Source of the DNA: a virus
Lineage: Duplodnaviria; Caudoviricetes
DNA length: 64,000 nt
Virus record (IMG/VR): IMGVR_UViG_3300042922_001473
Direction: 5' to 3' (one strand)
Under the pieces are notes generated by a model, which was not told where the DNA came from, did no database searches, and saw nothing but the letters and a program-made list of their open reading frames with translations. Shown here piece by piece: positions 33,288-33,634 of this stretch. The position numbers were made by a program, and so were the translations under genes. Within the stretch, counting starts at the first letter, position 1. Each line of letters opens with the position of its first letter.

Positions 33288-33320
33288 TTAAAACCAACTA
33301 AAACCATCAGGAAAAAACAT
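33288..33320 (-). CDS. micropeptide MFFPDGFSWF
   Basis: AAGAGGTG RBS 8 nt before ATG; TAA stop. Confidence 0.55.
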   Translation of the reverse strand: MFFPDGFSWF

Positions 33321-33376
33321 TGTACTAACACCTCTTTTCTTAAAATTTGTTGAAACATTATAAAATTGTTGTTATA

Positions 33377-33409
33377 TTATAACCAACTAAAGCTATCAGG
33401 AAAAAACAT
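33377..33409 (-). CDS. micropeptide MFFPDSFSWL
   Basis: Same RBS spacing; TAA stop. Confidence 0.55.
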   Translation of the reverse strand: MFFPDSFSWL

Positions 33410-33465
33410 TGTACTAACACCTCTTTTCTTAAAATTTATTAAAACATTATAAAATTGTTGTTATA

Positions 33466-33498
33466 TTATATCCAACTAATGCCATTAGGAAAAAACAT
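33466..33498 (-). CDS. micropeptide MFFPNGISWI
   Basis: Same RBS spacing; TAA stop. Confidence 0.55.
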   Translation of the reverse strand: MFFPNGISWI

Positions 33499-33634
33499 CG
33501 TACTAACACCTCTTTTCTTATAAACGTTTACTTAATATTGTAGTATTTTATCTACTCATTTATTCTGTAAAATTTTACAAATTAAACTTTAATTTATTGG
33601 AAAGTTTTGATAGTATATATATTGGGGGTGTAGT

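Follow-up and report, generated by a model that had tools for sequence, protein, structure and literature searches.

A tandem array of three putative ten-codon genes for aromatic peptides on a giant mobile element from a soil metagenome

The locus described here raises two questions, namely whether a tandem repeat in which every unit carries a ten-codon reading frame is a set of genes, and what the peptides would do if it were. It was found in a stretch of 64,000 nucleotides (the window) from the IMG/VR virus record IMGVR_UViG_3300042922_001473 (Caudoviricetes), which has 26% GC and is part of a 534,699-bp contig from a soil metagenome. The element, whose gene content includes TnpB, DUF4046, a Phd-like antitoxin, CBASS-type genes, PARP, FtsH, RtcB, deformylase and methylases, is regarded as a giant plasmid- or phage-like mobile element of a low-GC Firmicute, and its host is probably clostridial, judging by GC content, the style of the ribosome-binding sites (RBS) and the best DUF4046 hits.

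Several genes and repeats of the window deserve mention in their own right. A PARP of 433 aa with WGR, regulatory and catalytic domains is encoded at 10567-11868 (-). At 16452-18984 (+) there is a CBASS-type pair, in which a SAVED-domain effector comes first and a SMODS/DncV-like nucleotidyltransferase that includes an AGS-C domain second. RtcB followed by a peptide deformylase (25874-27284, -) and a separate RNA ligase (2049-2804, +) represent translation-repair genes on a mobile element. At 22817-24426 (+) the gene of a membrane-anchored protein precedes a pair of paralogous lipoprotein-like genes (186 and 184 aa, without family hit), and the protein of 1121 aa encoded at 38384-41749 (+) contains GHKL-type ATPase modules in repeated form (HATPase_c, MPN635_N). 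Two intergenic, single-copy ORFs of eight codons, at 43929 (-) and 29631 (+), have Shine-Dalgarno (SD) energies of -11.3 and -11.4 kcal/mol, respectively, and are unlike the array peptides. A 30-bp tandem repeat (43431-43507, 2.6 copies) with the core TGTTGCAA, of which more copies lie nearby, sits in a long gene-free stretch (42790-44240).

The array itself occupies 33288-33520 and, in agreement with the original prediction, has a period of 89 nt and 2.6 copies, with 93% matches and no indels (TRF). On the minus strand GAGGTG stands 8 nt ahead of each ATG (33498, 33409 and 33320), and the three frames of ten codons, each closed by TAA, read MFFPNGISWI, MFFPDSFSWL and MFFPDGFSWF, exactly as had been described (Table 1). 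The calculated monoisotopic masses of the unmodified peptides are 1210.59, 1275.56 and 1279.54 Da, and formylation would add 27.99 Da. A JGI contig and an NCBI assembly carry the array without a single difference, as does a Logan contig over the stretch that it spans. The array is therefore not an assembly artefact of the window, although these three assemblies may share reads or site with it. Two soil metagenome DNA runs, which may be the source, also contain the array sequence, with no variants; no RNA run was among the matches listed, which has no bearing on expression. As all these copies belong to the same element, they provide no evolutionary test. Over 6.5 kb, all 13 differences between the JGI copy and the window fall within a 76-nt patch of tnpB (30718-30793), a pattern that suggests either gene conversion between copies of the IS or their mixed assembly.

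Table 1. Parts of the array and its surroundings, with positions in the window
Feature	Position	Strand	Remarks
Micro-ORF 1, 10 codons + TAA	33466-33498	-	SD -9.7 kcal/mol
Micro-ORF 2, 10 codons + TAA	33377-33409	-	SD-led frame
Micro-ORF 3, 10 codons + TAA	33288-33320	-	Own stop codon is the end of three-way homology
Leader of unit 1	33499-33519	-	SD GAGGTG 33512-33507; start of three-way homology
Leader of unit 2	33410-33430	-	SD GAGGTG 33423-33418
Leader of unit 3	33321-33341	-	SD GAGGTG 33334-33329
Spacer 1, 35 nt, 9% GC	33431-33465	-	Contains TATAAT
Spacer 2	33342-33376	-	Two differences from spacer 1
Bidirectional intrinsic-terminator-like hairpin	33221-33253	Both	Common to array and convergent gene ending at 33210
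Region upstream of array	33519-33579		Two related palindromes and a weak promoter-like match
Divergent neighbour, 189-aa protein of an unnamed family	33635-34204	+	Context only; not an RRNPP receptor

Regarding the coding capacity of the units, the SD (-9.7 kcal/mol, against a median of -9.0 for the genes of the window) is stronger than that of 63% of these genes. An ATG with an equally strong SD arises in 0.44% of shuffled units (P 0.0044) and in 4% of native intergenic 89-mers, a control set that includes real starts, and among all starts of the array on both strands only that of the MFFP frame has an SD. Since the three copies descend from one unit, SD and ATG count as one event and not as three. 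Three-way identity spans from -21 to the final base of TAA, and past the stop copy 3 drops to 13/24; for limits falling at SD and stop, a rough joint P of 0.008 was obtained post hoc. The changes within the ORF were predicted to be conservative, and indeed all amino-acid changes score at least 0 in BLOSUM62 (P 0.014; mean score P 0.025-0.04), while codon position 2 is untouched. Codons 5-10 hold 6 of the 9 changes (P 0.007, post hoc and with a boundary chosen afterwards); within wider bounds this clustering has a P of 0.05 for codons 2-10 and 0.13 for the whole ORF. It is equally true that no change breaks start, stop or frame, but the argument drawn from this is a weak one, as all three stay intact after six random changes with a P of 0.24, i.e., as expected by chance. 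With one silent change out of six in the ORF, against a neutral expectation of 16%, there is no excess of silent changes.

On sequence grounds the units are thus probably micro-genes, and this is the best-supported reading in view of the strong SD, the limits of homology, which coincide with SD and stop, and the conservative nature of the changes. The part of the original prediction that saw a small-peptide cassette here is borne out to that extent, whereas the absence of a silent excess and of any homologue weighs against it. We would give peptide genes under selection, whatever their function, about an even chance, and translation of some kind a somewhat better one.

The search for relatives covered viruses, bacterial genomes and metagenomes. 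The original prediction had proposed a pattern search for the RBS-led peptide and a BLASTn of the unit, and neither brought up a homologue. Peptide-coded patterns, strict and loose, run with and without RBS, stop and tandem spacing, gave nothing or chance matches in IMG/VR viral contigs. In GTDB genomes ten scattered single matches were obtained, none with the core, and in a sample of 401 Bacillota genomes only long genes starting with MFFP and chance matches. The JGI metagenomes, an incomplete collection that did not return the element itself, contained no match to the pattern with RBS, and a looser pattern gave 22 matches without SD, mostly within other genes. Against plasmids and phages blastn found short AT-rich matches, mostly to the spacer, and a DNA search of 401 Bacillota genomes found AT-rich spacer noise alone. 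The joined array peptides showed no likeness in Pfam and PDB searches, and a literature search for the peptide sequence gave one unrelated match. As a separate observation, related Cys/Gly-rich ORFs of 40 and 47 aa in two Bacillota genomes have a GAGGTG SD and start with MFFP; beyond these first four residues they are unrelated to the array.

An empty search is also what speaks for functionless stubs, i.e., an SD with the first ten codons of a gene, either decayed or newborn, which underwent neutral duplication in a slot of fast turnover, where translation may occur without selection. Such an origin is a serious possibility, if well short of a probable one, and the neutral silent fraction and the chance level of frame survival fit it as well. 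The slot ahead of the divergent gene has differing contents in related elements, including unrelated genes, and in one of them it holds a 77-aa fragment (1180-1413, -, of the compared piece; no Pfam hit) that looks, by its motifs, like a broken uracil-DNA glycosylase. Duplications do happen here, as illustrated 1.6 kb from the array by an exact 115-bp tandem duplication (35162-35391, 2.0 copies, 100%), which adjoins a hairpin at about 35149-35193 and, as a control for neutral duplication, shows no SD-led start. The array, however, has homology that begins just ahead of the SD and ends exactly at the shared stop, with conservative changes clustered in the peptide next to a spacer that is identical at 33/35 positions; moreover, no longer gene with this beginning can be found in viral contigs, nor, with the RBS, in metagenomes.

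The neighbours of the array offer no partner for it. The divergent 189-aa protein has 13 relatives at 33-44% identity and is predicted to combine a small beta-sheet domain with a small helical domain; neither an HTH or TPR hit, a family match nor an Atlas match was obtained, and the best fold-search Z of 4.9 gives no clear match. A similar micro-ORF was found at none of the eight other loci of this family (0/8), and the protein was discarded as a candidate receptor. As slot contents vary and these loci are without the micro-ORF, the array is better seen as cargo in a variable slot than as the partner of its neighbour. The acidic 95-aa protein encoded convergently at 32923-33210 (+) has no Pfam hit. 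It is one member of a large, unnamed family of domains, with 445 relatives at E ≤ 0.001, among which fusion or doubling is frequent.

Conservation is higher in the non-coding parts of the unit than in codons 5-10, and the array could accordingly be a non-coding repeat in which the MFFP frame is incidental: tandem promoter or operator units (possibly for the gene at 33635), an RNA module, or the relic of a hydrophobic -1 frame. We consider this unlikely, for reasons that differ between its versions. Promoter-like matches can be found on both strands of the spacers, one at 33474-33446 (-), with 10/12 positions, which combines TATAAT in spacer 1 with a weak -35 located where ORF 1 ends, and one on the plus strand (TTGAAA-17-TATATT, 33350-33378) within the spacer 2 region; a further weak match lies upstream of the array (33571-33542). 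Such matches are, however, near chance level in the window (21 found against 14.7 expected), and a promoter of the array in either the upstream region or the spacer is not established. The spacer also matches the Clostridioides plasmid pESW1602 (3001-3057) at 34/40 positions with an E of 0.1. The matching region directly precedes the SD and ATG of a gene without annotation, at about the spacing seen in the array, which may reflect chance or a shared type of promoter. The upstream palindromes, a perfect 14-mer (33566-33579) and a 10-mer (33521-33530), are possible operator sites but may also be due to chance, perfect 14-mer palindromes numbering 18 in the window; the palindrome at 33519-33532 agrees at 12/14 positions with a CcpA cre-like 14-mer. 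As for the -1 frame, it is open in all three copies, with conservative changes of which 3/7 are silent, but it has no SD (-0.4 to +1.3 kcal/mol) and its 25-aa form no tblastn match in plasmids or phages, and it was rejected.

Turning to RNA, the invariance of RBS and MFFP that had been described was confirmed, but over the invariant stretch from SD to MFFP a weak hairpin can form (-5.9 kcal/mol), which can also hold that stretch constant. This hairpin raises the cost of opening the start: the SD partly pairs with the first codons, at 7.5-9.9 against a gene median of 5.6. The units nevertheless fold no better than shuffles (z 0.1-0.4, for folds without pseudoknots), and the array matches no Rfam family at E ≤ 1, both of which speak against a structured RNA. 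What every non-coding version leaves unexplained is a strong, well-spaced SD-ATG (P 0.004-0.04). The hairpin beyond the array, by comparison, folds far better than shuffles (z -5.7 on the minus and -5.4 on the plus strand) and carries U-tails on both strands. The terminator that had been said to close the array is therefore real, but since the convergent gene could be terminated there as well as the array, its presence lends the array no independent support.

Returning to the micro-gene reading, an SD-ORF-spacer unit would have been tandemly duplicated into three paralogous ultra-small genes, transcribed leftward to the shared terminator either as one transcript or from one promoter per spacer. 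Each ORF would be translated independently from its own SD into a ready-made aromatic peptide of 10 residues, in which the MFFP head and S-W are constant while the middle and the tip vary. From the observed anatomy, SD strength, homology limits, substitution pattern and terminator, we infer transcription, translation and selection of the array. A 10-mer is too short to fold or to span a membrane, so that any activity would be pocket binding, and as leaderless communication peptides (LCPs) are the only characterised class found of such size and make-up, the peptides are read as leaderless ligands comparable to the LCP/SIP signals. By this analogy, they would be exported and act on a receptor encoded by the host or by another part of the 535-kb element, and the three variants would have three slightly different specificities. 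We hold this trans-acting mechanism to be possible rather than probable.

LCPs, known from SIP/RopB of Streptococcus pyogenes and RopB-clan relatives, mostly have 8-10 aa and are highly hydrophobic, largely with aliphatic and aromatic residues, although exceptions with polar residues and Pro are allowed; they can be found on plasmids including a megaplasmid, and are exported, taken up again and activate their receptor (PMC10518010). Like the array, they are encoded by unannotated ultrasmall ORFs with a strong RBS, are rich in aromatic residues and start with Met and an aromatic residue, one LCP candidate even beginning with MFF (PMC10518010). The defining 8-10 codons without leader or processing sites and the high-confidence SD can be found in the array (-9.7 kcal/mol), and in both cases a gene is transcribed divergently from the micro-ORF. 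In contrast, the RopB-like HTH-TPR receptor that lies adjacent to LCPs (within about 450 bp and usually divergent) is missing, the array being flanked by the 189-aa protein without HTH/TPR hit and the 95-aa protein without family hit, and no RopB/RRNPP or sensor-kinase family was hit among the larger proteins of the window. The array peptides, with 3-5 aromatic residues, are also far less hydrophobic than SIP (GRAVY 0.6-0.9 against 2.85) and contain Pro and Asp/Asn; they come as three tandem variants instead of one, and no co-directional target gene follows them. None of the LCP sequences in PMC10518010 matches the array, and Clostridia are absent from its main text. The array therefore resembles LCPs in anatomy, with the defining adjacent RopB-type receptor missing. 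Further points against a leaderless ligand are that no homologue was found, although signals with a function tend to be conserved together with their receptors, that the micro-ORF is absent at 8/8 other loci of the divergent gene's family, that silent changes are as under neutrality, that the promoter is not established and that the SD is partly paired.

Other known systems share single traits with the array. The clostridial Qsp peptides (QsrB/QspB of Clostridium acetobutylicum) are made as precursors of 39-50 aa with a signal peptide, beside a Qsr regulator, and the active peptide has Pro at -5 and Trp at -1 with three residues between them (PMC7376267). They are likewise short and mostly hydrophobic, with conserved Pro and Trp (PMC7376267). 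The array ORFs, however, have 10 aa and no signal peptide, the distance from Pro-4 to Trp-9 is one longer with four residues between, and no regulator was found alongside. In the psm-alpha locus of Staphylococcus aureus, several short paralogues are encoded in tandem, every one behind an RBS of its own, and the peptides form amphipathic helices of 20-22 aa. Tandem short paralogues, unannotated and with their own RBS, can be found in the array as well, but a peptide of 10 residues with Pro-4 is unable to adopt such a helix or to cross a membrane. Type III toxin-antitoxin RNA arrays (ToxI, CptI and TenpI) consist of tandem repeats between a promoter region and a terminator, and the array similarly has 2-3 tandem copies before a terminator. 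Its unit, however, measures 89 nt, and the next gene after the terminator is convergent and not a toxin gene. The Rfam search gave no match at E ≤ 1, and the units fold no better than shuffles (z 0.1-0.4, for folds without pseudoknots). Attenuator leader peptides go with a co-directional regulated gene and alternative hairpins, whereas here a terminator and then a convergent gene follow.

RiPP precursors are accompanied by a modifying enzyme and usually by a leader or exporter. A Trp that never varies close to the C-terminus, together with cores that differ between the tandem copies, would suit a RiPP or ComX-like precursor with modified Trp and an enzyme encoded elsewhere. The peptides have, however, no leader, no Cys and no C-terminal Asn, and no modifying enzyme or exporter was recognised among the scanned proteins of the window, which agrees with the earlier remark that none is adjacent and makes this reading very improbable.

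The peptides could also act in the cytoplasm as inhibitors or adaptors that occupy a hydrophobic pocket in a protein of the host or of the element (a defence enzyme, protease or regulator), extra copies raising dose and range; we judge this unlikely. The coding evidence is equal to that for a leaderless ligand, no export or receptor gene is needed, in keeping with the empty neighbourhood, and the element has conflict genes (CBASS-type nucleotidyltransferase, SAVED effector, PARP, RtcB, deformylase and FtsH). These genes are, however, 6-23 kb distant with no linking motif, there is no Pfam or PDB likeness, and mimicry of the F/Y-P...W motifs in a DUF4046-repeat protein 1.1 kb away was rejected as not significant (P 0.18 and 0.09). 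Neither the anti-defence nor the modified-peptide role that had been proposed thus received specific support. A further reading, a receptor-less panel of three peptides that acts in trans on the signalling receptors of hosts speaking several 'dialects' and so hijacks or jams them, seems to us similarly doubtful.

No relative or receptor of the array was found. At present it is one orphan locus for which the internal evidence is moderate, and it ranks below micro-peptide families conserved across genomes. Bacterial genes that function with no more than ten codons are mainly known from LCP signals encoded beside their receptors. If functional, this stand-alone, self-terminated trio of variant 10-mers would show that genes of such a size can operate apart from a receptor and diversify through duplication.
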